Shown here piece by piece: positions 8,877 through 62,602 of a DNA stretch of 64,000 bases. Under the pieces are notes generated by a model. That model did no database searches. It saw nothing but the letters and a program-made list of their open reading frames with translations, and was not told the origin of the DNA. The position numbers and the translations under genes were made by a program. The DNA comes from Protoeuglena noctilucae (taxonomy: Eukaryota): NCBI GenBank assembly GCA_958009085.1, contig OY253688.1, positions 558,001 to 622,000 of the forward strand. The letters are read 5' to 3'. Numbering within the stretch: the stretch's first letter is position 1; each line of letters starts with the position of its first letter.

Positions 8877-11195
8877 TCACGCCTTGACGTTCTTGACCGA
8901 GTCCACGATGGCATCGGCCAGGTAATCGGACTTGGCCTGGCTGAGCCCGGCAAGCGAAATGCGGCCGTCGCTAGTCATAAAGACATTCCACTTGTTGGTC
9001 ATGTTGTCGCACTGCGCCTTGCTGAGGCCCGTGAAGGAGAACATGCCGATCTGCCGGAGCACGAACGACCAGTCCTTCTCGGGCATGCGCTTGGCCAGGG
9101 CGTCGTGCAGGACCTGGCTGCGGGGGGAGAAATGGAGGGGAGGGCAGTTAATATTTTTACTAATCATGATGGTTGTTTCGCAAAAAGCTGCGGTGACATA
9201 CACAAAAAAACATAACACAACTTATCACAAAAATCACAATATTATAATAAAATTACAATAATTGTAACAACAACAACACCATAACGAATGTTTACCCAAC
9301 CCCTTCCTCATGTCAACAAACCCCGTCCTCACCGCACGGTGGCGATGCGCCCGGCCATCTCCCGCATCTCCTCCTTCCACTCCTGGAACATCGCGGGGTC
9401 CGAGATGACGTCCCTCGCGATCCGGGCGCCGTGCGCGGGGGGGTTGGAGTAGATGGCGCGCGCGATGCGCTTCATCTGGCTCAGCACGCGCCCGGCCACC
9501 TCCTTGCTGTTGAGCACGGCCACCAGGGCGCCCACGCGCTCGCCGTACAGGCCCAGGTTCTTGGCGTAGGACTGGGGGGGAGGTGGGGGGGTGTGGGGGT
9601 GGGAGTAGTGGGGGTGGCAGTTGGGGTGGGAGTGGGGGTGGCGGTGAGGGTGGTAGTGGGAGTGAGGGTGACGGTGAGGGTGGGGATGACAGTGGGAGTG
9701 AGGGTGGCGCTGTGACGCACAACACGATACACCCCCCACTCACCTGGGTGCAGAAGTACTCGATGCCCATGTCGGCGAACAGCCGGGGCGCGTAGGCGTC
9801 TTGGTCGAGGTCCCCCGTGGCGAATCCCTGGTAGGCGACGTCGAAGAAGGGGAGGTGACCCTTCTTCTGGCACAGCTCGGCAATCGCCTTCCACTGCTCC
9901 TTCGTCGGGTCGATGCCTGGGGGGGGTGAGATGGTGGGGGTGGGAATGGCAGCGGGGGTGGCAGTGGGGGTGGGAGTGGGGGTAGCAGTGGGGGTGGGAG
10001 TGAGGGTGGCAGTGGGGGTGGGAGTGCGGGTGGCAGGGAGGGTGGCAGTAGGGGCGAGGGTGGGAATGAAGGCAAGGGCAGTATGCGCAGCCGACCACAT
10101 CACTGCCTGATTGTCACCACCACCGCTACCCCGCTCATCTATCCCCACCTCCCTCCCTCCCCAAAACCTCACCCGTGAATGGGCGCAGCCATATACAGCG
10201 CACTTACCCCTGCACACCTCATCTCCCCCCCCACATTCCCCTCCCTCTCACTCCCACAAACTCACCCGTGGGGTTGTGGGCGCAGCCGTGCAGCAGGATG
10301 ACCGACCCGTCCGGGGCGTTGCGGATGTCCTCCATCATCCCCTCAAAGTCCAGGCCAATCGTCTTGGGCTCGAAGTAGCGGTAGTGCTTCCACTCCACGC
10401 CCGCGTCCGCGAAGATGTTCTTGTGGTTGCCCCAGGTCGGGTTGCTGATGTAGCACTGCTTGCCGGGCATGAAGCGGTCCACGAACGCCGCGCCGACGCG
10501 CAGCGAGCCGGTGCCGGAGAGCGACTGGACGCACGCCACGCGGCCCTCCTGGATCGCAGGGTGGCCCTCGCCCAGCAGGAGCTTGACCGTCGCGTCCTTG
10601 AACTCCTGCAGACCGTCGATCGGCAGATACTCCTTATTCTCGTTCTTCTCCAGCAGGCGCTGCTCGGCCTTGCGGACCACGCGCAGCACGTAGGGCTGCA
10701 GGTCCTCCGTGCGGTACGCCCCCACGCCCAGGTTGAGCTTGGTCGGGGCCGTGCACTTCTTGAATGCCTCCGTCACGCCCAGGATCGGGTCCGGGGGCGC
10801 CTGCTCCACCGCGTCCAGCTTCGACGCGGCCGGGACAATGTGCCCGCGCACCGTCTCGAGGCGCCGGGCCCCGGAGACCTGCGGCGGACGCGGCGCGGTT
10901 GTTCGGCACCGGGGAGCGGCGGAGGGGGGCGGGAGGGGTGCGCAGCGGCAGATTCCGGGACTGGTTCGTGAAATCTATCGAGCGCGATCGAGACGGGGGA
11001 GGGAGACAGCGAGGAGCGCCGCAATTGCCGCGGCTAGCAAGGGACAGCTACGTGACGGCGCCGCGACCTCGAGGGCCCGCAAATTCGGGTGCGGGCTCGC
11101 CAGCGAATCGGAACATCGACCATCTATCGACGAGAGGAACTGTCTCGGCGCAGGCGACGGCCTGCGCGGCCCACCATACGGTCCTCGACCGACAT
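8877..11195 (-). CDS. Aspartate aminotransferase, multi-exon
   Basis: Motifs [67 protein letters not shown] (PLP lysine), [21 protein letters not shown] and DGRISLAG. The first exon 11195-11175 is inferred. Confidence 0.95.
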
Positions 11196-12149: not shown

Positions 12150-14530
12150 ATGGCCAACACGGAGGTTCAGGGGCGAGTGGACGAGTTTCTGAAGCTTCTG
12201 GAGACGAAAAATGTCTCAAGGAAGGAGGATGAGGAGGCCGCTTCCCTCGCCGCCCTGCGGCTGGCGTACTGCTGCTCTGGAATGACTTCGGACGAGTTCC
12301 TGGCCGCCTTTGCGAAGGGTGGCCTCAACCGCGACGCAAACAGAGCCAAGGAAGTGGTCAAGTCGGTCAAAGGTTGGGAACCGTTGCAGCGGAAGCAACG
12401 GGGGCCGTTCGTCAACGGTGTACTTGCCAAGGAATTTGAGGTGCAATGCAGCGCCTCGCTCGGCTTTGCAAACGTACTCATTTTACTGCAATGACGTTCC
12501 AAACGCTTCAAGCTACGCAGGTGCGGCAAGGTTTCACAGATGCCGAAAAAAAAAAAACATCAAGGCCGTCAAGTTCCGGGCGTACGCGTATCTCTACTGC
12601 AGGAACCTGGATCTGGACTGCTTCCCTGAAGACGAGGTGTACGTACTGTTTGGTGTCCAGGAAATGCATGACATGTCGGGCAAGGTCGTCCTGCGTCACC
12701 TGCTGGACGAGGCTGGGGAGTTCGGGAAAGTGGCGCAGAATCTGGGCGAAACGGCTTTCAATAACGATGGGGAGGTCACCAGCAAGCTGAGACTCGACCC
12801 GCGCAAACTGGGAAAGGAGCTGGGTGCCATCCACCCTCAAAATCCGACCTCGGGCGGCAGGCGAGGCAACAGCCCTCGGCCACGTGCTGAGTGAGCATAC
12901 AAGTATGCTGGGTGGCCGAAATGCCCATCTGTTTGTCTGCTCACAGGGTGGGCGAGCCAGAAGGGCCCACAGACCATGCCGGCGACCGTGCTACGGAGTC
13001 GCAGATTTGCGTCGACGAGACTAGACACGGAGCGCAGAACAAGGCAGCGACCGCGGAGGGAGAGGGCTCAGCAGTCGAGAAGTGAGTGGCACGCCGCATA
13101 GTCTGTTTTTATACTTTGTGCGAAAGCAAATGTCAATATGTTGCTCATATTATCACCTTTGACCAAAGCCCTGGAAGCTAATGTGGAGTACATGGCGTAC
13201 TTTACTTCTCGCACACAGGACGTGCAATGCGCCGCAGCAGAAGGAGTCCCGTGCATGGAAGCTTTTCATCGATGTCCATCAAAGGGGCATGAATGACGGG
13301 TAAGACGAACGAGGGCATTGATGGCAAATGTCTTATGTTACTAATTTTGCCTTGTCAAGTTGCTGTATTTTACCTATGCCTATTCTAACCCGATCACTGG
13401 TTATGTCGCTGACTGTATTGTTTCCTTACTCGTTCTCAGGACCTGTGATGCCAGTGTCACGTTCCCAGGCGAGCAAGACGCCCTTATCCTGCACATCGAG
13501 TGCAAGACTGTGACCGTGGCTGAGCGCGCCACGACGCCACCCAAGCTTCAGAACAAGAAAGAAGGCGTGGACCTTTTGGGACAGTACTTCACGACGATCT
13601 ACTTCTGTGTGTGTGCGGAGAAAGAGAAGTGAGTTGAGAGGTGACAACATAGTATGCAAAGATTAACTTCAATTATATTTCGAATAAAATTCATTTTTTT
13701 TACCCCTGGTCTGCAGCCTTGTGAGGCTGAGGGAGTTCAAGTCGCTCGCATCTACAATCTTCCTGGCAGAGGCGTCGTTGCTAAGTGAGCAAAAAAACCT
13801 CATAGCTAACGAAAGCGTCATTAAGAGGAAGGCACAAAGGGGCGCATACTGCAGGATATGGTTTGCAGAGAAAGATGGACCTCAGACAAGTCACACGTCG
13901 CTCACTTCAAGTATGGCGACAGAGCTAACACCAAGAGCATACTCCTCAACATTCAAGCGAGGTGACGGCTCCAGGGACGATTTTTCAGAGGGCATCCTGT
14001 TCGTCATCAATGGCGTCAAAGACCTGCATGGGCATAAAAAGTCCAAGGAATGCATCAATGATTTTCACGAGTGGGTTAAGGCAAGGAGGGAGCTGGGCGA
14101 ATACGTGGCAGCTGCTAGAGACTATACAGAAAAAACCGGCGATACTCTGGGTATGCGCAAGACATGGGTCAGGGTCGTGGTCAAAGGCATTCTCAAGCTC
14201 AAGGGGAACAGCATGGACGGCCTCGAGGGGGACAGCATGGACGGCCTCGAGGGGAACAGCATGGACGGCCTCGAGGGGAACAGCATGGACGAAGAGCTCA
14301 AACGCGAAATACGTTTTTGCAGATACATGCTTCATTTGGTGGGCAACAATGTGTTCAGGGAAGTGGCAGTTGCTGTGGCTGAGGAGGCAGCGAAAACGGC
14401 CGATTTCCAAACAACGGATGGCGTGGGGAATTTGGGGGATGTGAAGGCGGCCCTTGCAGAGCCACTGAAAAAGTTCCTTGCCCTCAAGATGATGGAAGCC
14501 GAGACCCAGGCGCAGGTGCGGAATTATTAA
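12150..14530 (+). CDS. Orphan multi-exon protein with a possible PD-(D/E)xK nuclease motif; frameshift at the A12 run
   Basis: Phase-consistent exons approx. 12150-12440, 12521-12860, 12947-13081, 13219-13299, 13440-13628, 13717-14530. One frameshift at 12546-12557 is needed. TGTAA motifs lie just downstream (about 14563 and 14600). Lower GC than neighbouring genes. Confidence 0.55.
14203..14291 (+). repeat. Coding tandem repeat, 24-nt unit GGGAACAGCATGGACGGCCTCGAG, about 3.6 copies (GNSMDGLE)
   Basis: Directly visible near-perfect tandem copies. Confidence 0.9.
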
Positions 14531-17249: not shown

Positions 17250-17251
17250 AG

Positions 17252-19319: not shown

Positions 19320-19844
19320 TATAATATGAATCGGTAATGAATAGCAGCTTTTTATTCATATTTCGTGCTTTTTTTAGAATATGTTTAAGCTGTGAGGGTG
19401 AGGACCCTATGCTATGTAGAAGGCCCGCATATCAGAGGCCACAGAGGGAACCGAAATGGAATTTCACGAACGCAAAATGAAATGGAATATATACACCATT
19501 ATTCCATTTGTGAGAAAGGGACTGCTCAGGACCGCTCAACTGTCAGAGCCCGCGTGTCGGCCGCTGCCCATGCACAGCTGTGTGCACTGGGCGATACTCT
19601 ATGCTGACTGGCACACTGCATGCCAGATATGCCGCCGCTGTGCTACGCGAACAGGGAAAACGACGCGACAATGCTGCGATGCAGGATATCAATGACGCCC
19701 CATGCGTGATAGACAAATAGACTCCATGGTTCGTCTGTGTGACTGCCATGTACCACCCACTGCCAACGCACCACCACCACCACTGCCCAATCCGACCACC
19801 GCACTCCACGCTTCCACCACCCCACAACCACCACAACCACCCCC

Positions 19845-22800
19845 TCACTCCTCCAGCCCACCCCCCCCAACCCCACCCTTCCCACCCCCAACCCTCCTCG
19901 TCTGGGCCAGGAACAGCCTCGTGACGTCCTCCGCAGTGCTGGCGTCCTCTGGGCTCTTGTCCGGCCTCAATCGCAGGAAGCGGGGGAAGCGAAGAGCGAT
20001 GCCTCGATCGGACACGCAGCCGACGGCGGCGCTGGGGGTGAGGGGTGGGGAGAGATGGGTGAGAGGGGAGAGGTGGGTTGAGATGGGGTGAGTGGTGGGG
20101 TGGGTGGTGGGGTGAGTGGTGCGGTGGGTAGGGAGAGATGGGTTGGAGAGAGGTTGGTAGGGGTGGGCAGGGGTGAGAGGTGGGGTGGAATGGAGCTCTG
20201 CAGCCTGCATCACAACCCCTCATGTCCCTTACCGGTGGGTGGGGCTCAAAGACAGGTCCGCCCCGGTGATCTCCCACACTTCGCAGGGATCGAACCAGAA
20301 ACTGCAAGACTCCCCCGTGTCGTAATACGAGGGCTTGGCGGGGAGGCGCTTGGCGAGGAGGCGGTCGGTGACTTGGGCGTAGAAGGCATCGGAGAAGCCC
20401 GACATGCAGCTGCGAGCAAGAGGATAGTATAGTACATTATACATGGGGGGTTGAAGAACATGTCATCTTACTCTGTTTTCTATTATTGTCATTGCAATTC
20501 TTATTCTTTTTCCAGTCCATAAATCCAACATTATCATTTTACACAAAGGTTTTGTCAGTTGTTATATGTTATCATTATAAATACCATGCATCATACCTCA
20601 CGCACTCACCGGCACAGCGACTGGTACTCCTGCCGGTCCGGCTCCCACACGGCCAGCAGGATGGGCGACAGCCACTTGTGCTTGCGGCCCGTCCCGTGCC
20701 ACGCCCCGATGGGAACCACGTCCAAGGTGTCCCGCATATCCGCCAAATAGTCCCTTTTCATCTTCAGCCAGAGGTCCGACCTGGGGGGGGGGGGATAAAC
20801 AGCGATCTAAATTTATCAGTGCTTACAATTATTGAGTTAAGTATAAACAACAATAACGTAAGGCACGCAACCTGAGTCAATACCGATACGCGTGCATTAC
20901 TCAACCCACACGCACACACACACCTCTATACCACTTCCAAACACCCCCCCAATCCACTCACCTCTTGTTTGGCTGATACACCCCCGTTATTGCTTTGATC
21001 ACCAGCCCCTCCGTCCCCGCCTTCCACGCCTCCTCCATACACTCCATGATTGCACCCTCCCCCAGACACCCCTCCTGCACCTCTTCAGCAATGTCCACCA
21101 CCTCCCCACCACCACCACCACCCGCACCCGCACCCGCACCCTCGCCCCTCCCACCCCCATCGTCGCTCCCACTCTCTCCATCGCTCTCCACTCCCACATC
21201 CTCTGCATCACCCTCGCCCTCATTCACTCCCACTACACCCTCATTGCCACCCTCACTGCTACCCGCACCACCACCAGCATCCACACCCGCACCCGCACCA
21301 CCACCCCCACCCGCAATCTCACTGCTGCCCACACCACCACCCGCACCCACCAAGTCCCTCACATCCGTCACCCTCCCGTCTTCATACACCGCCCTCCCAT
21401 CGGCAATCTCCACCACCCCCACCGATTCCTTCACCATTCCGTATGCCAATCGCCGTCTCTCCAACCACGGACGCTCCAACACCACCGCCCCCTTCGCCAC
21501 CAACACATCAAACACCATCAAACACACCGCGCTGTGACTGCTACTGTAAGCATTAGCATTAGATGCTGCGATACTGGTGGTGTTGATCGTGTTAATGTTG
21601 GCACCTTGCATGGCCTCATCAGCACCCCCCTTCCCAATCGCATCGCCACCACCCAAATCCCCACCGTCCCCATTGCCACCCTCACCACCACCCTCTCCAT
21701 CCCCACCCCTCTCACCCCTCCCACTCGCCACCCTACCCACACCCTCTCCATCCCACTCCTCATCCCCCCTCTTGCCCCCCATCTCCCCTGCTTTGCCCCT
21801 CGGCCTTGTCGCCAGCTCCTGGAAGGCACGAAGGCGGTAGGGGCGGGAGGGGCCGGGGGTAGAGAAGTCTGCGAGAATAGGTGGTCATCATAGAACATAT
21901 TATTTAATCCATAAATCTCAAAAGAGAGTTTCGATCTACCCATCCAACACTACCGAATGCTTCTGTAGTTACCGTCAATCGTCATCATACATCATATATT
22001 AAATGCAATACACATGCATTATATCCATATCCCACTCACCCACCGCCACGATCTCCCCGTCCAGCACGCATGGCCGGTGCTCCGCCCCCACCGCCCTCCG
22101 CACCGCATCGGCGACGTCAGGAAACGCGCCAGAAAAGTCGTCGCAGTTCTTGGAGAAGAGCCACACGGCGCCGTCCGCGGCCAGGTGCACCTGCATGATA
22201 GATGCGAGGGGGAAGATTGTGATATGTAATATAGTTGCACTATTGTAATGACAGGTATACTATAAACGATATATTGCACATATTGCCGACTCAATGCAAT
22301 CCATATACACTATAATAATAACATATTTAACTATAACCACATATCATCATACATATCACCACACATCGACAACCCCCCAAAACACACACCTGGCACCTCT
22401 GCCCATCGTACTTCCACTCCCCCACCATAGGCCACCCGACCTTGGCCGCCACCATCCCCGGCCCCGTGCTTGGCTTGGCAAGCATCGGCCGCACAGGTGT
22501 CCCTACTCTCACGCCCACCCTCTTCGCGATATCCAGCACATGTGACAACTCCACATCACGCGCCATCAGCTCCGGCAACAGCACGTCCAGCGACGGGCAC
22601 AGGTCAAAGCACGTTTGCGCGGCCGCAGAGGCTTTGGACAGCACGTCCGCAGGGCACGTTTTCTGAACCTCGGCATAGCGGTGTGAAGCGGCGGCCCTGC
22701 CGAGGGCGGCGATGACGGTGCGGCTGCCGGCGCCCACGCGCAAGTTGCCGATCAGGGTGCGGACGAGGTATCGCATCTCACTCTCGCGGCAGCGCCTGCG

Positions 22801-25800
22801 AGGGTGACAGTGGGATGGGGTGGGTGAGTGATGTAGCGCCTGCGAGGGTAGCAGTGAGATGGGGTGCGATGGTGAGAGTGGGAAGTGCATAGGCGTTGCA
22901 TGTATGCAACGAATCCCAATTACATCGCAACTATGAATGTGAGTGCACCATAATCACCAATAACACGACCACTAACAACCCCACCACGTTCACCATCATC
23001 CTCAATCATTAGTAACAACAATTACTACTAATCACATTGCCCCCACCACCGCCGCCCTAACCTCATGAGCCCGAGCATCTCGGCCTTTCGCGCCTGCTGC
23101 GACCCCGCTCCCTTGGCCGCCGCGATCCTCTTCAGTGCCAGAGACACGTCGCCCACCGTCAGGGCGCGGGGGGGCACCAGCAAACGCTGCCGGGACCGCA
23201 AGTACTGCGCGGCGTCGCCCAGGTCACCCGTGCGCCTGCGATGAAGGATCGCGGACCGGGTTGACTGTTGTTACTTAAAAAGTATGCCCGTGCAATTTTC
23301 CGTATTGGTGAAAATAGTGGAAAAGCGAACGGTGCAGCTGCTCGCGCGCCGCGGCCTCTCTGCAAATACATATTTCTATAAACCCCATTATTATCATTTA
23401 TACATAATAGATTATAATAATCATAAATTACATCATCAAAGCACTCGTATATCGCTCGCCTGTACCCCTCATGCAGCTGCGCGCGCGTCCCCCCCGTGGC
23501 CTCCAGCACCGCCTGGCTGACGGTGGCCGTGCCGACGTTCAGATCGCTGCCAGAAACGTGGCGCGGCCCCACTTTGCCGATGAGCAAGTAGGAGAAGGGG
23601 AGGAGGTCAGAAGGCGAGAGGGCCATGACGGTGCTGCACGGAAGGGGCGGGGCGGGGCGGAGAGACATGGGATGGGGTGGTGTTGCTAGTTGTCAGTAAC
23701 TAGTTATTACATATCCACGCTCCATGATACCGCAACAGTATTGATACCACAGCTCCATGGCATGACAAACACATGCAGTGGTTGTCTATGATATCAAATA
23801 TTTATGTACATCATAACATTACATCGATTCACATCCACCGATGACCCGGCCGCTCACCGCAGCGCCTGGGCGAGTCCGTCCGCGATGCTCAGCCGCTTCG
23901 TCGTGGCATCCAAGGCTCCCAATGTCCTGGCCACGTGCAGGTAAGGCACGCGCTCCCCAGGGGCCCAGCAAGCATCGCCGATATTCGAATTCGCATTCGT
24001 ATTCGAATTACCATCGCCTTTGGAACTTGGTTGCGCACCGCCGTCGTTCTTAGTAGCAGTACTACCACCCCCCCCCGTCGCAAACATGCCCATTGTTCTC
24101 GCAATGCTCGTCAATGCCTTTCCCTCACCCGCTCCACCCCTCGCTGCCTCGCCAGCCTGGCCCTCATTTTCACTCTTATCCCCACTCCCATTCCCACCCT
24201 CACCCACCGCCCCCACCACCACCTCCACCCCCTCATCCCCCACACCCTCACTCTCGCTCTCATCACTCAGCAGCTCGCCCACCACATGACCCCGATGCGC
24301 GTCTCCCTTACCCTTATTACCACCCATCTCCGTCTTTCCCACCCCTCCCCTCTCCCCACCGCTCTGCTTAGCACCAACCCCCACCGTACCACCACCACGA
24401 CCACCACCCTCACCGTCCATTGATGTCCCGCCACCCTTGCCACCCGGACTGCCCCCCACTTTCCCGAAAAACGAAAGCAGCGTTCGCTGTGCAGGGTCAT
24501 CCCGCTTGCGACCCCCTTTGCCCTTGCTTGGGGTGCCGGCCTTTGCCACAGCCCCACCCCTCATGCCCGCACTCTTGCCACCACCACCACTCTTTGCACC
24601 ACCCATTGCAACCTTCCCAGCACCCCCGCCACCACCGCCACCACCGCCACCACCCTTCACAGCCCTACCGCCACTCCCACCCCTCGCCCCCCCAACTGCC
24701 GCCCACCTCCTTGCTTCCTGCAGCACCCCCACACCCCCATCCAACACCGCTGCAATCGCAGCCTGCATGTCCCATTTGTGCTTCTCCAACAACGCACGCA
24801 ATTCCCCATGACCAAACCCCTCCGCCATATCTCCCAACACCAACCCCACTTGCTCCACCAACTCCCGCTGCTCCAATGCAGACAGCGATGCGGGGCCAGT
24901 TTCATCGATAACCTTGTCATCGCGATCCCCATCACCACGACCCCCGTCACCGCCACGACCATCGCTCTTATCGATATCGTTATCGACACCTGCCCTATCG
25001 CGAGCCCCATCGCCAGCACCGCCACCGCTCCTCTTATCAACTCCCACCGACGCCCCTGCCCCTTTCACCCCCACAATCTCAATGTCAGAATCGCTGCTAT
25101 CTCCACCTCTGCTCACCCCACCCCTCTCATCCACACCTCTCCCATCTGCACCCTCGCCCACCCCACCCCTCCCATCCACAAACACCGCACCCACACCCGC
25201 ACCTGCCCCACCATCCTTTATACTCTGTTCCACATCTCCACCGCCACCCTCACCACCAATCACCACCTCCCCACTCCCCTCGCTCTCATCAACACTGCGC
25301 TGTCGCACACGCCGCCGTTTCCTGCCCAATACCCCACCCCCACTCCCACTCCCATCCACACCCTCTCCACCCCGCTTGCCCGCCATCTCACTCCCACCCT
25401 CTCCACCCTGCTCACCCCCACCCGCACCCGCACCCGCACCCGCACCCGCACCCGCACCCGCACCCGCACCCTTTCCCCCCCGCAGCACCCCAGCCAGCAG
25501 ATTGGCCTTCAGCGCCGTCTGATCGACGTACTTCCCAAGCTTCTTCAGCACCCTGGCTTTCGCCTTATCTCTTTCCGCATCGCTACCTCCCACACCGTCC
25601 CCGACTGTTGGTATGAGCTTCTTGGGCCTTATGAACTTGACATACTCGACCAGCTCGTCCGCGCTCGAGTGCTCGCTGTAGGCGCACAGCCGTATTTCGA
25701 GATTTCCCCGGGTGAAGACGTCGCGTCGTTTACTGGCGCTGGTGTGGACCCAGCCGGTGGGGACGAAGCCCACGGCGCGGCTGTAGGGCGTGCCCTGCGT

Positions 25801-40936: not shown

Positions 40937-43900
40937 ATGTCGGCCGCGAGCTGGGCCCCGGCAGGCCGCCCTGGCAGCCGGGAGGTCGCGCGGCGCCCGC
41001 GGGCCGCTCCCCGGCTGCTCCCGGTAGCCTCGCGCTCTGTTCGACCTGGCGATGCCACATCGGCGGCGCTGGCGGCCCGCGCAGCCGCGCCCAAGCCCTC
41101 CCCTGGTCCCCTGAGCCGCAACGCGTGTCCCATGCCTCCCGCGCCCGCCGCGCGCCGCCCCGCGCGCCGCCTGCCCCCGCCGAGCGCCTCCGCGAGTTCG
41201 AGTGCGCTCCCCGCGCCCGGCCAAGAGCCCTGGCAGCCCCCCGTCTCGTGGAAGGAGCGCATTCGACGCACGATAGGCCAGATGGACGGACTGTGGGGCG
41301 AGTTCGTCCCCATGGTGGCTCTCTTCTTCTTTATGGCATTCGTCAACACGGGTGAGAGATGGTGGAGATGGTAAATGCTACTTTGTTGGGTGTATGGTCA
41401 TCACGTTTGGTTCTCCTCCCCCAATCACTGACTCGCTCATAGGCACCCTCGTCGTCACAGCTACCCTCACCCCCACTGTAGCACTCACCCCCACCCCCCA
41501 CTCTCATCACCCCAGTCATCGACAGCCTCAAGGACACCCTGGTCGTCACGAGCGTGGGGGGCGGCCCCCAGGTCATCCCCTTCCTGACCGTATACGCCGT
41601 CCTGCCCGCCTCCCTCGTCTTCTTCGCCCTCTACTCCCTCGCCACCCAGCGCTTCTCGAGGGCCCAGACGTTCAACGTGGTCATCGCCGCGTTTGTCGCC
41701 TTCTTCGCGGCGTTCGCGTTTCTGGCGTACCCCAACCACGAGGCCCTGCATCTGGCGTCGCTGGATGCCTGGACGCAGGCGGTGCCCACGGGGCTGCAGG
41801 GGCTGATCGGGATGGCCAGGTGAGAGGGAGTGGGGTGGGGTTGACTGCAGGGGCTGATCGGGATGGCCAGGTGAGAGGGAGTGGGGTGGGGTTGACTGCA
41901 GGGGCTGATCGGGTTGGCGAGGCGAGGGAGTGGAGTGGGTGCAAGTGGGGTTGCTGGGATGCCGAGGTTTATTATCGGATACTTATATAATTATCGTAAC
42001 CTTATCGCAAAAATGGACCTTCACGCTCTCCTACTTCGTCATCGGTGCACATCCATTTACCCTGATCTCCCAATCATATATTACCACCCCCATCCTCAGA
42101 AACTGGACCTTCACGCTCTTCTACGTCGTCAGCGAGCTGTGGGGCGACGTTGTGCTGTCGCTGCTCTTCTGGGGGCTGGCCAACGACATCACGAGCCTTC
42201 GCAAGGCGCGCGTGCTGTACCCGCTCTTCGGGATCGGGGCCAACGTCGCGCAGGTCGCCGCGGGGAGGTTCTTGAAGGCGAGTTTGTGATGTAGCTGTAT
42301 GTGTTTGATAATGGCCGTTAGTTGCATTGTGGGATGGGCATTGTGGGATGGGTAGCCGCGGGGAGGTTCCTCAAGGCGATATGGGCGATAGAGCTAGTGC
42401 TCGGTCATTACTGTGTTAATTATCAGTTATTGTTGTTTTGTTATTATACTTTGGCACATCATTGTTACCGTCATGATAACTTTCTTACAGTTCTATCCTC
42501 TCCCTCTCTGAGCAGGTGTGGGGCGCAGCGGCGGCTGCCAAGGGGACGGCCTTCCAATCGCTGCTGCAGGTGAGAAGGGGGGTGTTTGCTTTGGTAGCTA
42601 TAGTTGTTATAGCTGCTATATCGCATTCACACTTGTCGTGTACCATGCATCACCCCTCTCTTTCCCCCCCCCCCACTCTCCCACCCCGCAGGTGCAGATG
42701 TGCACGTGCATCGCGTCCGCCCTGTGCGTCATGCTCACGCACCAGTACATCATGGTGCGATTCCGACGAAGGCAGCCGCCGCAGAGGAAGGACGTGAGGG
42801 TCGCGAGGTGGGTGGTTTGGGGGGGGTTAGCGGCGGGTGGGGGTGGTGTGGGAGTGAGCTCACACATGAGGGTGGCAGTTCACACCTACCCTCACTCACT
42901 CCCTAAACCCCGCCCCCTCCGCACCCACTCCACCCCCACCTCATCCCTCCCACCCTGCCCCCCCCACACCCACTCCACCCCCACCTCACCTCATTTCACC
43001 TCATCCCACCCACCCCGCTCCCCATCTCCAGGCTGATGGCCGAGGGTAAATCCCGGGAGCAGGCAGAGTTTCTGGCGGGCTACGAGTCCGACGCCGACCT
43101 GGGCGTCCTGGGGAGGGCAAAGCCCCGGGGGGACTCTGACAGGGATTCTGACAGGGATCTCGAGTCAGAAACAGAGGCAGATTCAGAAGAGCCGGGGCCG
43201 GCGGGTGGTGCGGGTGCGGGTGCGGGTGCGGGTGGTGGTGTGGGTATGGGTGCGGGTGCAAGTGCCAATGCGGGTGTGGAGGAGGCTCGCGCGGAGTCTC
43301 GTGCGGTGTTGCGGCGCATCCAGGACGGCGGCACGGTGTCTGTCTCAGGTCGGGTGCCGGGCTTTGGCGATGCGGGGGGCGACGGTGGGCGTGCGTCCAC
43401 CAGCGGGCGAGGGGCGGCACCGGAGAGCTCTCTGGGCTGGGGAGAATCTTCGAAAGAATCGAGAGAGTCGAGAGAATCGAAGGATTCGAACCTCGCACCC
43501 GGCGTTGGCGAGGGGGTTGGCGATGGCGACGAGGGCGGCAGCAGCAGCGGCAGCAAGAGTGGCAGCGACGGGAGTGAAAAGAGCGATCGGAAGATGACGG
43601 TATTCCAGGCTTTGCGTTTCGTGGCCAAGTCCCCGCAAGTGCGCTCGCTGGCCGTCATGTCCCTGTCCCAGGGGGTGTGCACAACATTGCTGGAGTTCGC
43701 ATGGAAGACCGAGCTCAGGCGCATGCACCCCACGCCGCAAGCGTTCAGCGCGTTTATGGGCGACGTGGCGTCGGCGACGGGGCTGACCACGGTGGCATTG
43801 ATGGCCGTGTCACCCGCGCTGTTCCGTCTGGTGGGGTGGAAGGGGGTGGCGTCGGTCAGCCCCAGGTGAGAGATGGGGAGGAGGTGTGATGGGTGGTAGT

Positions 43901-45062
43901 GGGTGGCTGTGGCTGTTTCGACCATTTACTTTCAGACACCCACAATCCCTAGCATTCACTTACCCACACCCACGCACCCGACCACTCACCCCCATGCACC
44001 CCCACACCCCCCCACCCCCCCAGCCTCTTACTCACCGCCGGCACTGCCTTCTTCGCCCTCTCGCAGTTACCGCACCCACACTCACTCCCACTCAGCCCAC
44101 TCACAACACCCCCATCACCCCACCCCACTCACCCCACCCCTCCCCCAACCCCCCCTCAGGCTCTTACTCACCGCCGGCACTGCCTTCTTCGCCCTCTCCT
44201 GGTTCCTGAGAGCCTTCGGGTATGCCCTCAGCGGCCCCTACGAGAGCGTCTTGCTTTCCGGCATCGTGGTGATGGGGGCGGCGCTTTTCGTGCTCAACCG
44301 AGGATGCAAGTTCTCGCTGTTCAAGCCGGCCGAGGAGATGGTGTACATCATGCTCGACGAGGAGTCGAGGACCAAGGCGAGTGCGGTAATAGTTATTAGA
44401 TAGTAAATATGTTGTTATAGTTTATGTTATATATGTGTTGTGAGTGTCCAAGCCGGCGGAGAAGATGATGTATTGTCATCATGCTGGACGAGGAGTGGAG
44501 GACCAAGGCATCATAAACGATACATGATGCATAACAAATTGTAATGCTATTGTAATGTATTGTAATGCTACACACACCCTTTGTTCTCACCCCTTAACTC
44601 ATATCTATCCCTTGCTCAGGGCAAGGCGGCGATCGACGTGGTGGGGGCGCAGATGGGCAAGTCCAGCTCGAGCGTGCTGCAGCAGGCACTGCTGGTGAGA
44701 AACGGCAGTGTTTGTATATGTATTGTTATTGCTGTTATTGTCTGTTGTACACCTCACTACCATTCACACTCCCACCCCACAACCCTCACCCCACAACCCT
44801 CAACCCCCACCCCCCGCAGCTCCTCTCCGGCGGCTCCATGTCCCTCATTCTCCCCATCATGACTTTCTTCCAATTGGGCATATTGACCGAGTGGATGAGG
44901 GCCGTCACCAGGCTGGGGGACTTTTACAACGAGTCTGTCAAAAACACGAAGTTCGCCGTGGGGGGCGACGAGGGGAATGGGGAAACCGGTGGGGCGGGGG
45001 GTAGGGGAGTGGAAATGGGGGGGGAGGGGGGAGAGAGAGCGGCGGCGCCCATGGCTGCGTGA
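40937..45062 (+). CDS. NTT: Plastid-type ATP/ADP (nucleotide) transporter, TLC/NTT family, multi-exon
   Basis: FFFMAFVNT|VIDSLKDTLVVT, IPFLTVYAVLP, NWTFTLFYVVSELWG...LLFWGLANDIT, YPLFGIGANVA, KFSLFKPAEEMVYIMLDEESRTK|GKAAIDVVG..GKS. The start codon is uncertain. Confidence 0.92.
41794..41930 (+). repeat. 51-nt tandem repeat spanning an NTT exon end and 5' splice site (about 2.6 copies)
   Basis: CTGCAGGGGCTGATCGGGATGGCCAG|GTGAGAGGGAGTGGGGTGGGGTTGA at 41794 and 41845, with a degenerate copy at 41896. Confidence 0.9.
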
Positions 45063-56069: not shown

Positions 56070-59043
56070 ATGACCACCGTGAGCGCCACCGTCGCCCGTG
56101 CCGGGCTCGCCGGTCTGCTGCTGGCCGCCCTCCCGGGGCTGCTGGGCTCGATCGTCGCCGCTGACGACTGGCAAGACGGGCGTGGTTCGTTCTACGGCAA
56201 CGCCGGCAGCGGGTGGTCGATCCACCGAGGTGCGCGGGCGAGGCGCGGCGGCTTCCCGCCCTCGGCATATGATTGCTCGATCTCGCCAGCTGTCCCTCCT
56301 TGCGGCGCGCGGCACCGCGCCATGGCTTGATTCGATAGATCGGACGCGCAGAGCGGGCTCGCATCGCCCCAGCGCGCTCCGGCGGAGAGTGCGCGCCATC
56401 TGGAGCATGCACCCTGCCGCCCCGCTGCGCGCGCCCCGGGGCGGCTGCAGCCCCGCGAGGCCACGCTAACGCGCTCTCGTATCGTCTCTTTGCGCGCAGG
56501 CTCGTGCGGGTACGGCTACATCCGCGGTGAGCGCGGGGGCCGCAGGGTGGCGCGTTGCCGACAGCACCCTGCCTCCCCCGGCCCGCCTCAGCACCCAGCC
56601 GCCCCCTCCGCCCCCGCAGCGGACCGCGGCACCGGCTGGGACGTCACGGCGCCTTCCGACAAGTTCCCTGGCTTCGCCGGGAGGTGAGTGAAGGGGGTGC
56701 GGTGTGGGCGGGGACGCACGCATGCGAGCGCGCTGTGATGTCTCTGATGTATCACACAGACCCAGTGGTGTTTAACACACGCAGCTGCGGGACGTGCTAC
56801 GAGGTCCGCTGCCGCGACGCCGTCATCCACGACGGCTACGGGTGAGCGACGGTGCTGGTGATGCGTGATGTGTGCTGCGTGCTGAGTCTTGGCATATGCC
56901 CTGTGCTTGACAATTGCGATTGCCAATGCGGTCTCGGGACACACGCTATGCTGAAAGTATACATGCCCGGTGCCCCTGTCATGCAATCCATTTCACTCCC
57001 ATGCACGCACTGTGCTACGCTCTCGAATGCCCCATGCCCCAGCACCTGCCACCCTCCAGCAACCTGCAGCCATCATCATCATGACCATCCCACATTCCAT
57101 CTTCTCACCCCATCCCTCGCTCCCAGTGCCGAGATCAACCGCACCAGCGCCTGCCGCGACCCCGAGGCGAGCGTCGTGGTCACCGTCACCGACTCGTGCC
57201 CCTGCTACTACCCCAGCAACGCCTACAGCAACAAGCGGTGGTGCTGCGGGGACATGCCCCACTTCGACCTCTCGGCGTGGGCGTTCGAGAAACTCGCGGA
57301 CCCCAAGAACGGAGTCATCCCCCTGCAGTACCGGAAGGTGAGGGGGCGGTAGCTGGGGTGAGGGGGGGGTTGGGGGTGGGAGTGAGGGGGGTGACAAGGG
57401 TGGGAGTGGGAGTGGGAGTGAGGGGGGTGACAAGGGTGGCAGTGAGGGTGGCAATGGGGGTGGGAGTGTGGGTGAGGGTGAGGGTGGGGGTGGCAGTGAG
57501 GGTGACAGTGGGGGTGGGAGTGAAAGTGAGAGCGCTGGCAGCCCCGGAAGGTGGGGGGAGGGCGCACACCTTGCTCACGCTCACCCTCACCTGCACCCCA
57601 CATTCTTCCCCACCCCCCCCCCTACCCTCACCACAGGTCGACTGCAGCTACGTCCCCTCCAAGCCTCACCCACTCACTCCCACCCCCACCCTCACCCTCA
57701 CCCCTCTCAGGTCGACTGCAGCTACGTCCCCTCCAAGCCCGCCCCGAAGCCCGCCCACTCGATGCCCGGCGAGCCTTATGACGCCTACCACGACGCCCCC
57801 AAGCCATGCGAGAACCCCCAGTGCTCGAATCAGCCCAAGCCCGGTGACCGTGTCGAGGCGTTTGCGAGGGGCAGTGGGGAGGAGGGCGTGCCTAAGGAGT
57901 GGTCGCAGAAGGGGGGAGACGGGGCGGGGAGTGGTGGGGCGTGGCAGGTGAGGGGGTAGTGATGGTGATTGATAAGGGGATGAGAGGGGCTGGTTGGGCG
58001 GCGGTGTTAGTGGCAGGGCGAGGGGGTGGCGCGTTGCTGGTGTGAGTTAAGGGTGTGGCCATAACAGAACCATCGACTCTCATTTCACAAACTCACTTTA
58101 CTACCAACTCACCCCTTCTCATCCACTCTCCCCCCGCAGCCGAGCGTCAAGAGCGGCACGCAGTGGAGCGAGGGCGGCCAGACCTGCGCCGACCTCCAGC
58201 CCCACAGCGCCGGCACGCTCACCTTCCAAGCCCCATCCGCCGACACCATCGCGTCCGGATCCAAGCTGCACTTCTGCGCCAAGTATGAGACTGCAAACGC
58301 CAAGCCGTCGGTCGGCATTGCGGGTGCCAAGGCGGCGACAGGTCTCGTCAAGGTGGACGGGCTAAAGGGTGCGGGGCAGCAGGACGGGACGTGCTATGAT
58401 GTCGGTGAGTGGGAGAGAGTGTGTGTGTCTGGGGTTCTGTATTAAAAGGGCAAGGGTTGGCAGGACGGGACATGCTATGGCGTCGGTGAGATGGGGTGCG
58501 GTTGTTGCTGTGTAGATGGGGCGGCAGAGCACTTCATACCAGTCATACGCACATCACCATTTGACATGACTAATGATACTTTACAGTAGTAACACTCCCC
58601 CTTTTCTCTGCAGACATGGACGGGCAGCTCGCGAGCCTCCAGGGCAGCCCCAAGGTCTCTGACAAGGCCTACGACAGAATCGTGTTCCAGTGCCAGGGGT
58701 GAGTGGATGGGGAGAGAGGGGTAGCAGTGTGCATAAAAGAGGAGGTGGTGGAGTGGGTGAATGGCTATTGTAGAAGTTGTGTTTTAGTGCCAGGGGTGAG
58801 TGGATGAGGAGAGGGGGGTAGTGTGGATAAGAGAGGCAGTTAAAGTGGGTGGGGGGTGGAGTGAGTGGGGGTTGTGGAGTAGGTTTGTGGCATGGAGAGA
58901 GTCGTTACTGCTTCTAATTTAATCAGCTATTTTAGTACATATTTCTATATTTACTTTACTTTCATATCCATATCCCTCCACTCCATCCCCGCAGTGACCA
59001 GGACTGCAAGTTCTGCGTGGGCGGCATCAGCATCGCCAAGTAA
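56070..59043 (+). CDS. Secreted expansin-like (DPBB/GH45-like) protein, multi-exon
   Basis: Signal peptide; GRGSFYG, GSCGYG, SCGTCYEVRC, VVVTVTDSCPC and WCCGDMPHFDLSAWAFEKLA..GVIPLQYRKVDC. Confidence 0.9.
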
Positions 59044-59705: not shown

Positions 59706-62602
59706 TCACAGCCTCGCCAGATCCCTCATTCCCGGCAGCACCACCCCGCCGCTCCTCCCCGCCCCATTCACCGCCGTCAGTCCCCCCATCGCCCGCGCCA
59801 TCTGCCGCGCCACCCGCGCCGCGTTGACCCACTCCGCAAACAGATCCACCTTCTGCGTGAATACTTAGAGTAATGATTGTCTGTATTATGTAACAATCAA
59901 CCTCACTGCCACCCCCACTGCTACCCTCGCCCCCACTACCACCCCCACCGCTACCCCAACCCCCCCCAACCACCAACTCACCGCACCCAGCTGCCTCCGC
60001 ACGTCCGGGTCGTCCACTTGCAGGTGGTCCGAGTAGTCGATTTTCAAAAAGGGGATGCCCTTAAGCAACAGGTGGGCGTCCCCATGAACAGCGCTGCCGT
60101 CCTCCAGGCTGGCGTTGGCCTGCGGGAGTGGCGGTGGTGATAATAATAAGGGGATTATTTAGGATATTGAAAATAACAGTGATAGCATAAGTTGAGTGAA
60201 CACCAGTTGATAAAACAAGTAACACGCTTTTACTACGCATATATCAACATATATACCTTCATCTATCTGTCACCTTCGGATCCAGCACGAACAGGTGATC
60301 CGCGATCTCCGGCGGCGGCGGGGGCACCGCCAGCCCCGCGGCTGCCGGGTCATAGGGGGCAGGCACGCCCGCCCTCGTCGCAGGCCGTACCCCGCCCCTC
60401 CCGTCCGGGACCACCAGCCCCGGCGGCCCCGACTGGGGCAGCAGCACGTTCCCCGCCATGCCGGGAATGCCCTCCCAGGGCGCCGAACGTGCTCTGAGCC
60501 CAGGGGGCTCCCAGGCCCCCTTTCGTGCTGCGTCCGTGAACTGCCGGATCGGCACCTCCCTCGTGAACCAGTCTTCGTGCTTTTGGTGCAGGCTCTGGAT
60601 GTAGTTGGGGCTCATGTTTTGTTCCTCGGCCCGCCCTCGCTTGCCGATGCGCTGCATGGCGACGTCGGGGTCGACTCGCAAATAGACGAAGCCGTCCGGG
60701 ATGAGGACCTCCCGCTGGTGTTGCACGACGCGGCTGGGGGGTGGGGTGTTGGTGGGGGTGGGGGGTTGGGGTAGGGGGTTGGTGGGGTTGGAGGGAGGTG
60801 CAGGTGGGGTGACGGTGGAGTGGTGGTGGGGTGGTGCAGGTGTGTGGGAAGGCGGCAGTAGTGGTGCGGTGGTAATGCGGGTGTTGTGGTGGCAGTGCTT
60901 ACTTGAACATGTCGTCATATCCACTGCCATCGATCTGTCATCACTCACTTGATCATGTCGTCATATATACAGCCATCCATCTGTTTTCATGAAGTGACTC
61001 ACTTGAACATGTCGTCGTACACCGCCAGCTCCACGTCCCCGATGATGTTGTCCTGCATCATCTGGCGCACAAACACCATACGGTCTGACCACACACTACG
61101 CTCCGTCACCCTGGGGGGAGATTGGGGGATGGGATGCGAGTATAATAATTATGCAATAGTATCTGTAGTACATATGTATTATAATCATGCTATACTTGTT
61201 GTAAATATTGTTGGTAGTAATCATCGCTCCTCACGCTTCCCATCCCTCAACACCTCTCAACATTCCAACACCACATCCCCCACCCCACCCCAACCCACTT
61301 GACCGACTCGGTGAACCCCACCTGACCCTTCACACTACACAACATTCAAATATCCATATCACATCCCAACGCACCTGACCGACTCGGTGAACCCTGCCGT
61401 CTCCTGCACCAGGTTCCACCGCGTCATGAACACATGATTTTGGAACAAATAGGCGTATCGGTGCTGGTCCTTGTAAAACACCTCCAGTGCGTTGATGTTG
61501 CCCTTGAAATAGGGGACCTTGCGCCACTCCTCCACGGGCTGGGGGGGGGAAGGGGTGGGGGTGGGTGGGGGTGGGGGGTGATATGGGGTAGTGGGGTGTG
61601 AGGGGAGAGGGGTGACGTGGTGGGGTGACAGGGCAGTCAAATTGCATGCCAGTGAACCGCCATCCCCCCCTTTCATCCGCACCACATGCCTCCCCCCTTA
61701 TCACCCCCCCTTACAACAAGAAGCACCCCACTCACCTCCGGCACGACCCTCTTCCGATGCGCGTGCAGCCCCGCCTCCTCCTCCCGCCTCCCCTCCACGG
61801 GCGAGTTGAGCATGTCCAGGAACGTGCTCTTGCCCGCACCGATGTTCCCCTCGACCGAAATCGTGACGCGCATGTCCCCCCCCTCGCTCGCACCCTCCTC
61901 GCCCCCCTTGCCCGACCTGTCGTCGTTGGCCTTGATCCAATCAATGATGTTCTGGATATGCCGGGTGTGCTTGATGCCCACGGTCTCGCGAAGGAAGGCT
62001 TTGAATTGGGACTCGTCTCGGCTCTTGTGGAACACGCGGGCGAGGTCACGGGGGCTCGAGACGCCACTCCCGGACAGGCGGGCGCAGTACTGGGGGAGGG
62101 AGAGGGAGAGGGGGTGGTGAAGGGGTGGTGGTGGTGTGGTGAATGCGGGTGAGTGACAGGTGAGACCGGCGCAGTGCTGCTCCTTTCGCAACCGGTCCCA
62201 TCGCCGACCACATATGAGAACAGAAAGCCCCTCTCTGACCCTGTCACTCAGTCACTGATGAAAAACTGACGCCAGCCACGCTCCACGGCTCTACACATCC
62301 CACACAACCCAGCACCACCACTCGCACGCTCGCACCTTGCGCCCGATGCCGTGCACGTCCATCAGCGAGGCCTCCGCGGAGCTTTGCGGGGAAGGCGGCC
62401 GGGGCCTGTTTGCGGCCGATCGCGACGTCCCGATGCGCAGCGCGGGGGACGCGAGGTGCGCGCCGCTGCTGCTGGGCTGCACCGCATCGCCCTCCTCCCC
62501 GTCGCCGCCCGCGTCGGGCGCCGCGTGCGCCGGGACGGACGCCAGGCCCGCAGCGCGCGGGATTAGCGCCGTTCCGCGGAATAGAGCCGCTCGCCGCAGC
62601 AT
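59706..62602 (-). CDS. dNK: Deoxynucleoside kinase (plant dNK type) with N-terminal extension, multi-exon
   Basis: ISVEGNIGAGKSTFL (P-loop), VPEPVEEW, YAYLFQ, ERSVWSDRMVF and PDGFVYLR..QRIGKRGRAEE...HQKHEDWF. Confidence 0.92.

Follow-up and report, generated by a model that had tools for sequence, protein, structure and literature searches.

Intronic copies of exon ends and their splice sites in a 64-kb window of the Protoeuglena noctilucae genome: probable footprints of local duplications across existing exon-intron boundaries

The closest analogue of the sequences described here is a 37-bp VNTR in intron 7 of the human F7 gene (PMC1557585), a minisatellite that begins with a unit lying across the boundary of exon 7 and IVS7. 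There, a tandem unit of exon end, donor and intron start is repeated within the intron, and the resulting donor pseudo-sites are identical to the real one and silent, the most upstream site being used. A related process is intron gain as in the Rogers model, where an exon segment carrying an AG|GT proto-splice site is duplicated in tandem, with cases described in Drosophila (PMC2891723) and reported for a potato RdRp gene (PMC4974935): a short tandem duplication gives the second splice signal, splicing restores the original message, and the beginning of the new intron resembles that of the downstream exon, its end that of the upstream exon. Small tandem duplications are also reported to arise at DNA breaks by fill-in synthesis with CST-guided Pol alpha-primase (PMC8355091), and introner elements or transposon-derived introns are reported from Micromonas and others (PMC3879977, PMC4540971 and PMC11282704).

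We analysed a window of 64,000 nt, meaning the whole stretch of DNA under study, from Protoeuglena noctilucae, a marine green alga (assembly GCA_958009085.1, contig OY253688.1, positions 558,001-622,000, forward strand), for echoes, defined as intronic copies of the adjoining exon end together with its splice site. Exon and intron labels are the predictions of a custom gene finder for the whole window, which reproduced 14 of 14 RNA joints in the listed part of a set of 35 and whose models agree with Pfam and tblastn; models beyond ChlH, dNK and parts of NTT, ASP and LIG are prediction alone, and the gene finder called two false mini-exons out of echoes. Two scans were applied: an exon-only test, in which 40-nt exon probes were compared with the adjacent 250 nt of their own intron (score of at least 30) and, as controls, with other introns (74x73 comparisons each for 5' and 3' probes) and with the reverse complement of their own intron; and an unbiased direct-repeat scan of the whole window at offsets of 20-400 nt (ungapped segments, score of at least 17), with six far-offset ranges of equal width as controls. 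Contigs of marine metagenome run X5, from another study, served as an independent check.

All 12 echo sets listed in the original prediction were located, some displaced by a few bases. The direct-repeat scan independently recovered 11 of them; the ASP pair is absent from that scan because of a 5-nt indel, and its probe score of 22 lies at the 99th percentile of controls. The systematic probe scan added a thirteenth, unlisted junction in NTT intron 1, and echoes stand at 13 of 148 predicted junctions (about 1 in 11), in five genes within 64 kb. Own-intron matches scoring at least 30 were obtained with 9 of 148 junction probes against about 0.07 expected (control rates versus other introns, 0.0006 for 5' probes and 0.0004 for 3' probes), and none of the 148 matched the reverse complement of its own intron at that score; the repeat scan returned 89 segments scoring at least 17 at 20-400 nt, as opposed to 5, 3, 3, 1, 0 and 0 in the far-offset ranges. 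The echoes are real and far beyond chance. X5 contigs span seven of the ten imperfect pairs of the window with 0 other letters and 0 gaps: NTT 42010/42100, 42253/42351 and 44318/44445; expansin 58379/58460 and 58682/58779; and dNK 60898-60944/60998 and 61286/61362. The contigs end at the three perfect repeats, which exceed the assembler's word length, so that the perfect pairs are confirmed solely via their unique flanks.

In the ASP and LIG6-like genes, originals and echoes are placed as follows:

10253..10293, minus strand: original exon end and 5' splice site of ASP (class I/II aminotransferase), junction between 10266 and 10265, from the gene model
10160..10195, minus strand: 5' echo of ASP, 93 nt into the intron
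22791..22831, minus strand: original 3' splice site of the DNA ligase (LIG6-like), exon start 22795, from the gene model and repeat scan
22835..22875, minus strand: 3' echo of LIG, a near-complete 44-nt tandem unit, 83% identity

The exon-derived part of the ASP echo is 64% identical to its original, with the 5-nt indel, and its GTGAG donor persists with a score of 5.4; the Pfam Aminotran_1_2 profile runs from positions 2-159 in the ASP exon to 162-214 in the next exon. The LIG original consists of the C-rich tail, CAG and the first 5 exon nt, the echo acceptor has a score of 10.6 and the real one 10.4, and Pfam DNA_ligase_A_N spans the junction (86-140, then 143-173).

In NTT the echoes are placed as follows:

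41427..41462, plus strand: decayed 3' echo in intron 1, versus exon start 41508-41553, probe score 30
41794..41946, plus strand: 51-nt unit in three copies, original 41794-41844, from the repeat scan
42010..42044, plus strand: 3' echo of exon start 42100-42134, 31/35 identical, offset 90, AG lost
42351..42379, plus strand: 5' echo of 42253-42281 (exon end and GC donor), offset 98
44007..44062, plus strand: 3' echo of 44143-44198, offset 136
44445..44509, plus strand: 5' echo of 44318-44378, offset 127-131, donor lost

The intron 1 echo copies the start of exon 2 (41516 onward) and has lost its AG, and an RNA contig joins exon 1 to 41516. The 51-nt unit is made up of 26 nt of exon end followed by GTGAG and 25 nt of intron; the second copy, 41845-41895, matches the original at 100%, and the third, 41896-41946, at 71% and with a GC donor. 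At 42351-42379, 22 of 25 exon-derived bases are identical; at 44007-44062, the segment 44025-44062 matches 44161-44198 perfectly (38/38) and the echo acceptor scores 12.2 versus 12.8 for the real one; and the 65-nt echo at 44445-44509 retains 85% identity with a 4-nt indel.

The remaining echoes lie in the expansin-like gene and in dNK:

57634..57665, plus strand: expansin-like 3' echo, 32/32 perfect versus 57708-57739, offset 74
57666..57707, plus strand: expansin spacer between the 57634-57665 echo and the real 3' splice site
58445..58490, plus strand: expansin-like 5' echo of 58364-58409, offset 81
58779..58821, plus strand: expansin-like 5' echo of 58682-58724, offset 97
60944-60984 and 60898-60938 (array 60898..60997), minus strand: two successive dNK 5' echoes of exon end and donor 60998-61024
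61286..61318, minus strand: dNK 5' echo of 61362-61394, offset 76

The perfect expansin echo comprises CAG and the first 29 exon nt, and within its spacer 57673-57703 is an inverted copy (30/31, E = 1e-10; best match elsewhere, 17/17) of a G-rich array at 57470-57500 in the same intron. The echo at 58445-58490 keeps GTGAG and 32 of 41 exon-derived bases; the real donor there is predicted to be either 58405 or 58369, both in frame. At 58779-58821 echo and original have identical donor contexts (score 7.8 each), and the BLAST match extends to 78 nt at 81%. Across the junction of 57337 with 57711 the protein reads ...PLQYRK|VDC..., which we take to be a conserved expansin motif; for the exons downstream of the DPBB domain no homologue was found. 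The dNK tandem array at 60898/60944 has units of 54 and 46 nt, and the RNA joint from 60733 to 61003 (runs X9 and X12) uses the exon-contiguous site, as does the joint from 61109 to 61374 at the other dNK echo, where 19 of 20 exon-derived bases are identical.

Echo-to-original offsets are 44-136 nt, and at all 13 junctions the unit holds exon end, splice site and intron start, with an exon part of 5-59 nt and an intron part of 25-97 nt. Units that are complete or nearly so are found in LIG (44 nt), at NTT 41794 (51 nt, three times) and at dNK 60898/60944 (46 and 54 nt), and the match at expansin 58779 covers 78 of the 97 nt of its unit; complete tandem units account for 3 to 5 of 13 echoes. 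Among the ten spacer-bearing echoes, the spacer resembles the flank predicted by tandem duplication in six (controls equal or higher, 0.000-0.027) and the opposite flank in none, and spacer homology is undetectable in four (NTT 42010, 42351 and 44445; expansin 58445). The two 3' echoes that are youngest, with 32 and 38 nt of perfect identity, have C-rich spacers that match the expected flank only weakly. Because weak or inverted spacers lie next to perfect echoes, plain tandem duplication with uniform decay is insufficient, and the spacers of the perfect 3' echoes point to complex break repair or to fast turnover of C-rich tracts. In 12 of 12 echoes no more than 0.51 of the unit is exon, which is unexpected from random end points alone and may be explained by selection against long pseudo-exons; the intron part has a minimum of 24 nt among 5' echoes and of 39 nt among 3' echoes, which fits the need for a branch point before the real acceptor.

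Consistent with the earlier proposal that one splice site stays functional and the other becomes a decoy, RNA places splicing at the exon-contiguous site at three junctions (dNK 61003, dNK 61374 and NTT 41516). Pfam positions and homologue residues continue across the ASP, LIG and NTT junctions, and protein homology or profile continuity supports the putative use of the exon-contiguous site at most other junctions; at expansin 58445 and 58779 that site is predicted by the gene model alone. Beyond the three RNA-backed junctions the decoys are presumably silent, with RNA contigs being blind to rare isoforms. Ten of 14 echo sites exceed the 10th percentile of the scores of real sites, three being identical or better, and four are lost or weak; the 12 that retain a splice dinucleotide would all introduce a stop or a frameshift if used. 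The copies do range from perfect to decayed (64-100% identity in exon-derived parts), a spread implying that the duplication process is itself spread over time. Exon-derived substitutions number 12, 12 and 20 at codon positions 1, 2 and 3 (p = 0.19), and the indels in ASP and NTT 44445 are not multiples of three. The intronic copies decay neutrally. Duplicated alternative or mutually exclusive exons were also considered and are ruled out by the stop or frameshift at 12 of 12 testable sites, by this lack of codon-position bias and by the non-triplet indels in two echoes.

The layout of F7 IVS7 recurs exactly in two arrays, the three-copy 51-nt repeat at NTT 41794-41946 and dNK 60898-61024. In contrast to the single F7 locus, the alga has echoes at 13 of 148 predicted junctions in five genes within 64 kb, includes 3' splice-site cases in which the unit carries the C-rich tail and the downstream site is used, and mostly shows one extra copy at varied stages of decay; silence of its pseudo-sites is documented by RNA at only three junctions. 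Whereas the Rogers model has two exonic copies and the birth of a new intron, the duplication in the alga crosses an existing intron and creates none; the echo lies 44-136 nt from the copied site and not at the far end of the intron, and no intron of the window shows the Rogers layout in the probe test. Rogers-type gain was rejected, since what is copied in an echo is the neighbouring exon end along with a splice site already present, and the echo stays close to that site. Fill-in and joining at breaks with complementary 3' overhangs, the CST-Pol alpha-primase route, is a candidate compatible with the end products visible in the alga, which share its tandem layout and its lengths of some tens of bases up to about 100 nt. 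Unlike simple fill-in products, several echoes have spacers or an inverted templated piece. Introners, as reported, share with the echoes the setting of marine green algae, intron-associated repeats and direct repeats flanking inserted sequence, but the repeats of the alga run to tens of bases and include a splice site that was already there. An introner-type repeated family was not found among spacers and introns within the 64-kb window, where inverted ends are not specific to introns.

The echoes are probably footprints of short local DNA duplications, mostly tandem, that straddled existing exon-intron boundaries. Duplications of units of about 44-136 nt would be frequent in the repeat-prone introns of the alga, with some chance of crossing a boundary. 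Each event would yield two copies of exon end and splice site, of which the copy joined to the remaining exon would keep splicing: the upstream copy at a 5' site, and at a 3' site the downstream copy, the duplicated unit also bringing the branch point and C-rich tract. The other copy would become intron, adding the length of the unit and a pseudo-exon-end with a decoy site, and would decay neutrally; an existing tandem pair would be open to re-duplication, as possibly at NTT 41794 and dNK 60898. Duplications wholly internal to exons would be purged by selection, and this would be why surviving copies of complex sequence in genes nearly all touch a junction: with 136,872 possible exon-internal start positions against 118,455 junction-spanning ones, a single exon-internal repeat was found, of low complexity. 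The molecular route may have been repair of staggered breaks by fill-in and joining, or else slippage or unequal exchange involving short repeats, with occasional template switching.

As had been anticipated, echoes lengthen introns (median 269 nt versus 171 nt, p = 1e-4); minus the duplicated units, the median of echo introns is 169 nt, and the duplications make up 36% of echo-intron bases and 7.6% of all predicted intron bases. Growth by junction-spanning tandem duplication, as put forward in the original prediction, holds insofar as the duplications are local and cross an existing boundary, but only some units are clean and a clear junction excess is lacking. Its suggestions of intron sliding and intron gain found no evidence within the window, where protein and profile alignments cross the covered echo junctions without indels.

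A lack of enrichment over repeats elsewhere in introns had been set in the original prediction as grounds for refutation, and the counts largely went that way: no clear excess emerged when all intron-internal repeats were counted (12 junction versus 7 intron-internal clusters, expected share 0.47 under a uniform model, p = 0.11), and probes from intron interiors likewise find repeats in their own intron (14 of 405 with complex sequence, 32 of 108 with low complexity). With G-rich and C-rich minisatellites set aside the count becomes 12 versus 2 (p = 0.003), a figure favouring the idea that junctions are mutational hot spots, where DNA breaks or replication stalls in the G-rich tract that closely follows a 5' site or the C-rich tract that closely precedes a 3' site; given the loss of the excess in the full count, we regard this as unlikely. 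On that hot-spot reading, such quadruplex-type or R-loop-prone DNA would be repaired by fill-in or template switching, giving junction-biased duplications. Quadruplex-type motifs are present in the intron 5' half in 3 of 8 introns with a 5' echo versus 4 of 66 others (p = 0.024) and C-run motifs in the 3' half in 3 of 4 with a 3' echo versus 14 of 70 others (p = 0.036), but the association is confounded by intron length and the numbers are very small. Two junctions with two echoes each and one spacer that is an inverted templated copy also suit a hot spot, although repeat echoes at one site are expected from unequal exchange within an existing tandem pair. We are correspondingly sceptical that junctions, owing to G-run tracts directly after 5' sites and C-run tracts directly before 3' sites, are preferred for breakage or replication template switching and that duplication is a directed, lineage-typical engine of intron lengthening; if this were true, junction-directed duplication would seed full-strength decoys that the spliceosome must ignore by position alone.

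Other readings compete still less well with local duplication across existing boundaries. Selection maintaining the echoes as working elements, either factor-recruiting decoys or sites of regulated unproductive splicing, would suit the near-normal scores of 10 of 14 echo sites and the apparently better preservation of exon-derived blocks than of adjoining intron-derived parts, two perfect blocks beside diverged spacers included; it is nevertheless improbable. Identities fall from 100% to 64%, there are indels, and 4 of 14 sites are either weak or gone. Substitutions have no codon-position bias, and coding constraint on one copy is by itself enough to give exon blocks about twice the apparent conservation of intron blocks. 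Echoes are also missing from ChlH (0 of 9 introns) and from the gene at 31.4-36.8 kb (0 of 17 introns). The block-spacer-block layout, with perfect direct repeats of 32 nt (expansin 57634) and 38 nt (NTT 44025), is what long target-site duplications of a mobile intron-type element (introner or small transposon) inserted beside the junction would leave. That origin is very improbable: the ten spacers have no complex sequence in common, mutually or with other introns of the window (low-complexity matches only), six of the ten resemble their own neighbouring flank, terminal inverted repeats within the same intron are not general (median p = 0.48, 72 introns), and the echo repeats are many times longer than the target duplications of a few bases reported for introners. 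Chance likeness between GC-rich stretches of low complexity, or an artefact of assembly or polishing, gains some colour from introns that open G-rich, close C-rich and contain minisatellites, and from three perfect repeats unbridged by any independent contig among those listed; it is hardly credible against nine exon-only probe matches with 0.07 expected, 89 local segments versus 0-5 at far-offset controls, and seven imperfect pairs within independent metagenome contigs with 0 differences.

In practical terms, echoes mislead gene finders. Should the whole genome have the density of this window (13 of 148 junctions, 7.6% of intron bases), the alga would be a natural library of duplicated splice sites, with some copies that match the real site perfectly along 32-51 nt. 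With it one could test positional choice between equal sites, namely the first donor and the last acceptor behind its own branch point, and could measure the contribution of small duplications to intron growth.

All 12 sets of echoes named in the original prediction, each comprising intronic copies of an adjacent exon end together with its splice site, are present in the sequence. We searched the entire window for direct repeats with offsets of 20-400 nt, using a seed-and-extend procedure of our own, and obtained 89 segments in 28 clusters, compared with 5, 3, 3, 1, 0 and 0 segments in six far-offset control ranges. These clusters include 11 of the 12 sets, and the pair in the class I/II aminotransferase gene (ASP) alone was missed by this ungapped scan because its alignment needs a gap. 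The proposed alignment of introns with their flanking exons, carried out on the window with purely exonic probes (40 nt from the end or start of an exon, aligned to the adjacent part of its own intron), gave own-intron match scores of at least 30 for 9 of 148 probes, with control rates of 0.0006 and 0.0004 and 0 of 148 matches for reverse-complement controls, and exposed a thirteenth echo junction in NTT intron 1.

Echo junctions and introns by gene
NTT: 5 echo junctions, 9 introns (6 with the added intron 1 case)
Expansin-like: 3 echo junctions, 7 introns
dNK: 2 echo junctions, 6 introns
ASP: 1 echo junction, 4 introns
DNA ligase: 1 echo junction, 9 introns
ChlH: 0 echo junctions, 9 introns
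Gene at 31.4-36.8 kb: 0 echo junctions, 17 introns
Three small genes: 0 echo junctions

Seven imperfect echo pairs are spanned, with 0 differences, by contigs of X5, a marine metagenome run from another study, and echoes thus exist in wild DNA; the X5 contigs end where the repeats are perfect (three cases, of 51, 38 and 32 nt), which is the behaviour expected of a word-based assembler, and no read bridges these. Sequence of the window is present in runs labelled with one organism and in marine metagenomes and metatranscriptomes of other studies. A protein scan of JGI metagenome contigs with an NTT exon found no relatives; a 19-nt exon pattern occurs at 112 JGI metagenome loci, and the 80 of these that were listed have a single match each, none aligned to the dNK region.

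The DNA is intron-rich and eukaryotic, with a GC content of 0.54-0.73 per 2 kb. ChlH exon 51271-52407 shares 85-88% identity with the ChlH of Chlamydomonadales, Pedinophyceae and Trebouxiophyceae, and a protein encoded on a metagenome or metatranscriptome contig matches it at 100%. We take the source to be a marine chlorophyte. Chloropicon was rejected as the source: Chloropicon genomes average fewer than one intron per gene and have 57.5% GC (PMC12301720, PMC6731263), against 10 RNA-supported introns in this one gene. Genes were modelled with a 3-periodic Markov coding model, splice-site matrices and Viterbi decoding, the training set being exons established from RNA joints and tblastn; 14 of 14 RNA joints (10 in ChlH, 4 in dNK) among those listed, 15 of 35, were reproduced. 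The models are consistent with the alignment of NTT homologues and match Pfam families (aminotransferase for ASP, DNA ligase, dNK, the DPBB/expansin domain, TspO, cyclophilin and COX6B), and profile positions are continuous across the echo junctions of ASP (2-159 then 162-214) and the ligase (86-140 then 143-173). Homologues of expansin exon 57711-57947 were sought and none found, so the basis for the three expansin junctions, which lie downstream of the DPBB domain, is prediction plus an expansin motif. The final set holds 74 introns and 148 junctions, after two false mini-exons were merged back into introns; 32,449 nt, about half of the window, carry no gene model.

Several features accompany these models. 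Plant LIG6 has a nuclease-ligase fusion layout; here a weak Lactamase_B_2 match (E = 0.004) at 25991-26780 on the minus strand lies upstream of the ligase domains (19644-23626, same strand), and the two were kept as separate genes. NTT contains at 42516-43578 a long low-complexity stretch of Gly/Ala, Ser/Arg/Glu and (GGTGCG)n repeats, the counterpart of which is absent from both homologues compared (P0001 residues 181-266 unmatched). Repeats at 14198-14291 (24 nt, 3.9 copies, 95% identical) and 5160-5600 (84-102 nt, with an Arg/Asp/Glu-type pattern) lie where no gene was called; they could belong to the coding sequence of genes missing from the models.

Each echo block consists of 5-59 nt of exon end, the splice site and part of the intron, and lies inside the intron 44-136 nt from the site copied. 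Echoes of donors (5' echoes) occur at eight junctions, two of them with two copies each, and echoes of acceptors (3' echoes) at five, NTT intron 1 included. Complete tandem units are found in the ligase (44 nt), at NTT 41794 (51 nt, three copies) and at dNK 60898/60944 (46 and 54 nt); the match of one expansin-like echo (EXP c) covers 78 of 97 nt. For the 10 echoes with a spacer between copy and original, we compared the spacer with the flank that tandem duplication predicts as its twin, using the opposite flank as contrast: six of the 10 spacers fall in the top 0-3% of controls with the expected flank, against 0 of 10 with the opposite flank, and no homology was detected in the other four (NTT b, c and e; EXP b). 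In the two youngest 3' echoes the blocks are perfect (32/32 and 38/38), yet the C-rich spacers only weakly match the expected flank. One spacer, in the expansin-like echo EXP a, contains at 57673-57703 a 30/31 inverted copy of a G-rich array at 57470-57500, 170-230 nt upstream in the same intron; this event looks like template switching rather than a simple tandem copy. The spacer formed by this C-rich inverted copy now holds the real 3' splice site's branch region and tail.

The exon-derived parts of echoes retain 64-100% identity with the exon; of the 44 substitutions in them, 12 lie at codon position 1, 12 at position 2 and 20 at position 3 (p = 0.19), and two echoes (ASP, NTT e) carry indels of a length not divisible by three. 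Ten of 14 echo sites have scores higher than the 10th percentile for real sites, including three (41871, 58796 and 57637) that equal or exceed the real site, and four are lost or weak. Splicing at any of the 12 sites with an intact splice dinucleotide is predicted to add 44-136 nt, with an in-frame stop or frameshift. RNA contigs from a single study (two runs), which are blind to rare isoforms, show the exon-contiguous donors in use at both dNK echo junctions. One RNA contig has a loose end at 41515 that equals the final 30 nt of NTT exon 1, which shows that splicing uses the real acceptor at 41516; in the four runs used, RNA from NTT and the expansin gene is too sparse to bear on echo-site use in those two genes.

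The original prediction that introns grow by such duplications is supported by their lengths: the median is 269 nt in 11 tallied echo-bearing introns and 171 nt in the other 63 (p = 1e-4), and falls to 169 nt in the former when duplicated units are subtracted. These units total 1,120 nt, or 36% of the echo-bearing introns and 7.6% of all predicted intron bases.

Enrichment specific to junctions, also anticipated, was not established. When units of the observed sizes are placed at random in genes, 47% of placements avoiding exon interiors span one junction, and the observed 12 junction versus 7 intron-internal clusters do not depart clearly from this (p = 0.11); exclusion of G-rich and C-rich minisatellites leaves 12 versus 2 (p = 0.003). 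Probes from intron interiors also recur within their own introns, in 14 of 405 complex cases (one being the original of EXP b; control rate 0.0017) and 32 of 108 low-complexity cases (control rate 0.029). Together these counts indicate that introns in the window are generally repeat-prone. There are weak hints that junctions are nevertheless a duplication hot spot, all of them confounded by intron length: quadruplex-type motifs in 3/8 versus 4/66 introns (p = 0.024), C-run motifs in 3/4 versus 14/70 (p = 0.036), and an exon share of the unit that never exceeds 0.51. Possible placements number 136,872 within exons and 118,455 across junctions; a single exon-internal repeat was found, of low complexity, and this scarcity fits removal by selection. 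The clearest purely intronic counterpart of echoes is a perfect 22-nt tandem duplication of complex sequence in a TspO intron (16355-16399).

The 74 predicted introns are polar in composition, grading from 50% G over their first tenth into 50% C over their final tenth, and several have AT-rich cores. Their arms could pair strongly (predicted mean -40 kcal/mol), no more so with each other than with the arms of other introns (duplex energy p = 0.20; inverted-repeat score, median p = 0.48). A type of G-rich 12-nt minisatellite (GGTGGGAGTGGG-like) is common to the 5' intron parts of unrelated genes (ASP 9546-10100; expansin-like 57332-57560). GC-AG introns are common, with GC donors in three of 10 RNA-supported ChlH introns and 8 of 74 predicted donors overall.

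GC-donor introns in two genes
ChlH: 49746/49747, 50085/50086, 52407/52408
NTT: 42277/42278, 44376/44377

The likely origin, in our view, is local duplication of short segments, mostly in tandem, within repeat-prone introns; some of these events would extend across the exon-intron boundary. Such a crossing would be tolerated because the exon-contiguous site is still used, and the intronic copy would then decay neutrally. At 3' sites the unit would need to include a branch region and C-rich tract of its own; the intron-derived portion of the units observed there is never shorter than 39 nt. Possible molecular routes are the filling-in and joining of DNA breaks, slippage, and unequal exchange, with template switching on occasion. 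Pol alpha-primase, which reportedly makes small tandem duplications at DNA breaks, is a candidate.

The closest known analogue is the 37-bp minisatellite of human F7 IVS7; its first unit spans the exon 7 boundary, the identical donor pseudo-sites are silent and the most upstream site is used (PMC1557585). Intron gain by exon-internal tandem duplication (PMC2891723) creates a new intron and a different layout, which was not found in the window. Of the interpretation first offered, duplication, tolerance and intron growth are supported; intron sliding, intron gain, lineage specificity and junction-specific enrichment are not shown. The open-access papers searched contain no account of junction-spanning echoes that recur at numerous junctions in a single genome, nor of such echoes at 3' sites.

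The echoes form a dense natural collection of events of a known type, useful for studies of splice-site choice and intron growth. They are also a trap for gene prediction: our gene finder called the echoes at 44024-44065 and 57637-57651 as false in-frame mini-exons, and similar false exons may sit in the automatic annotation of the P. noctilucae genome.
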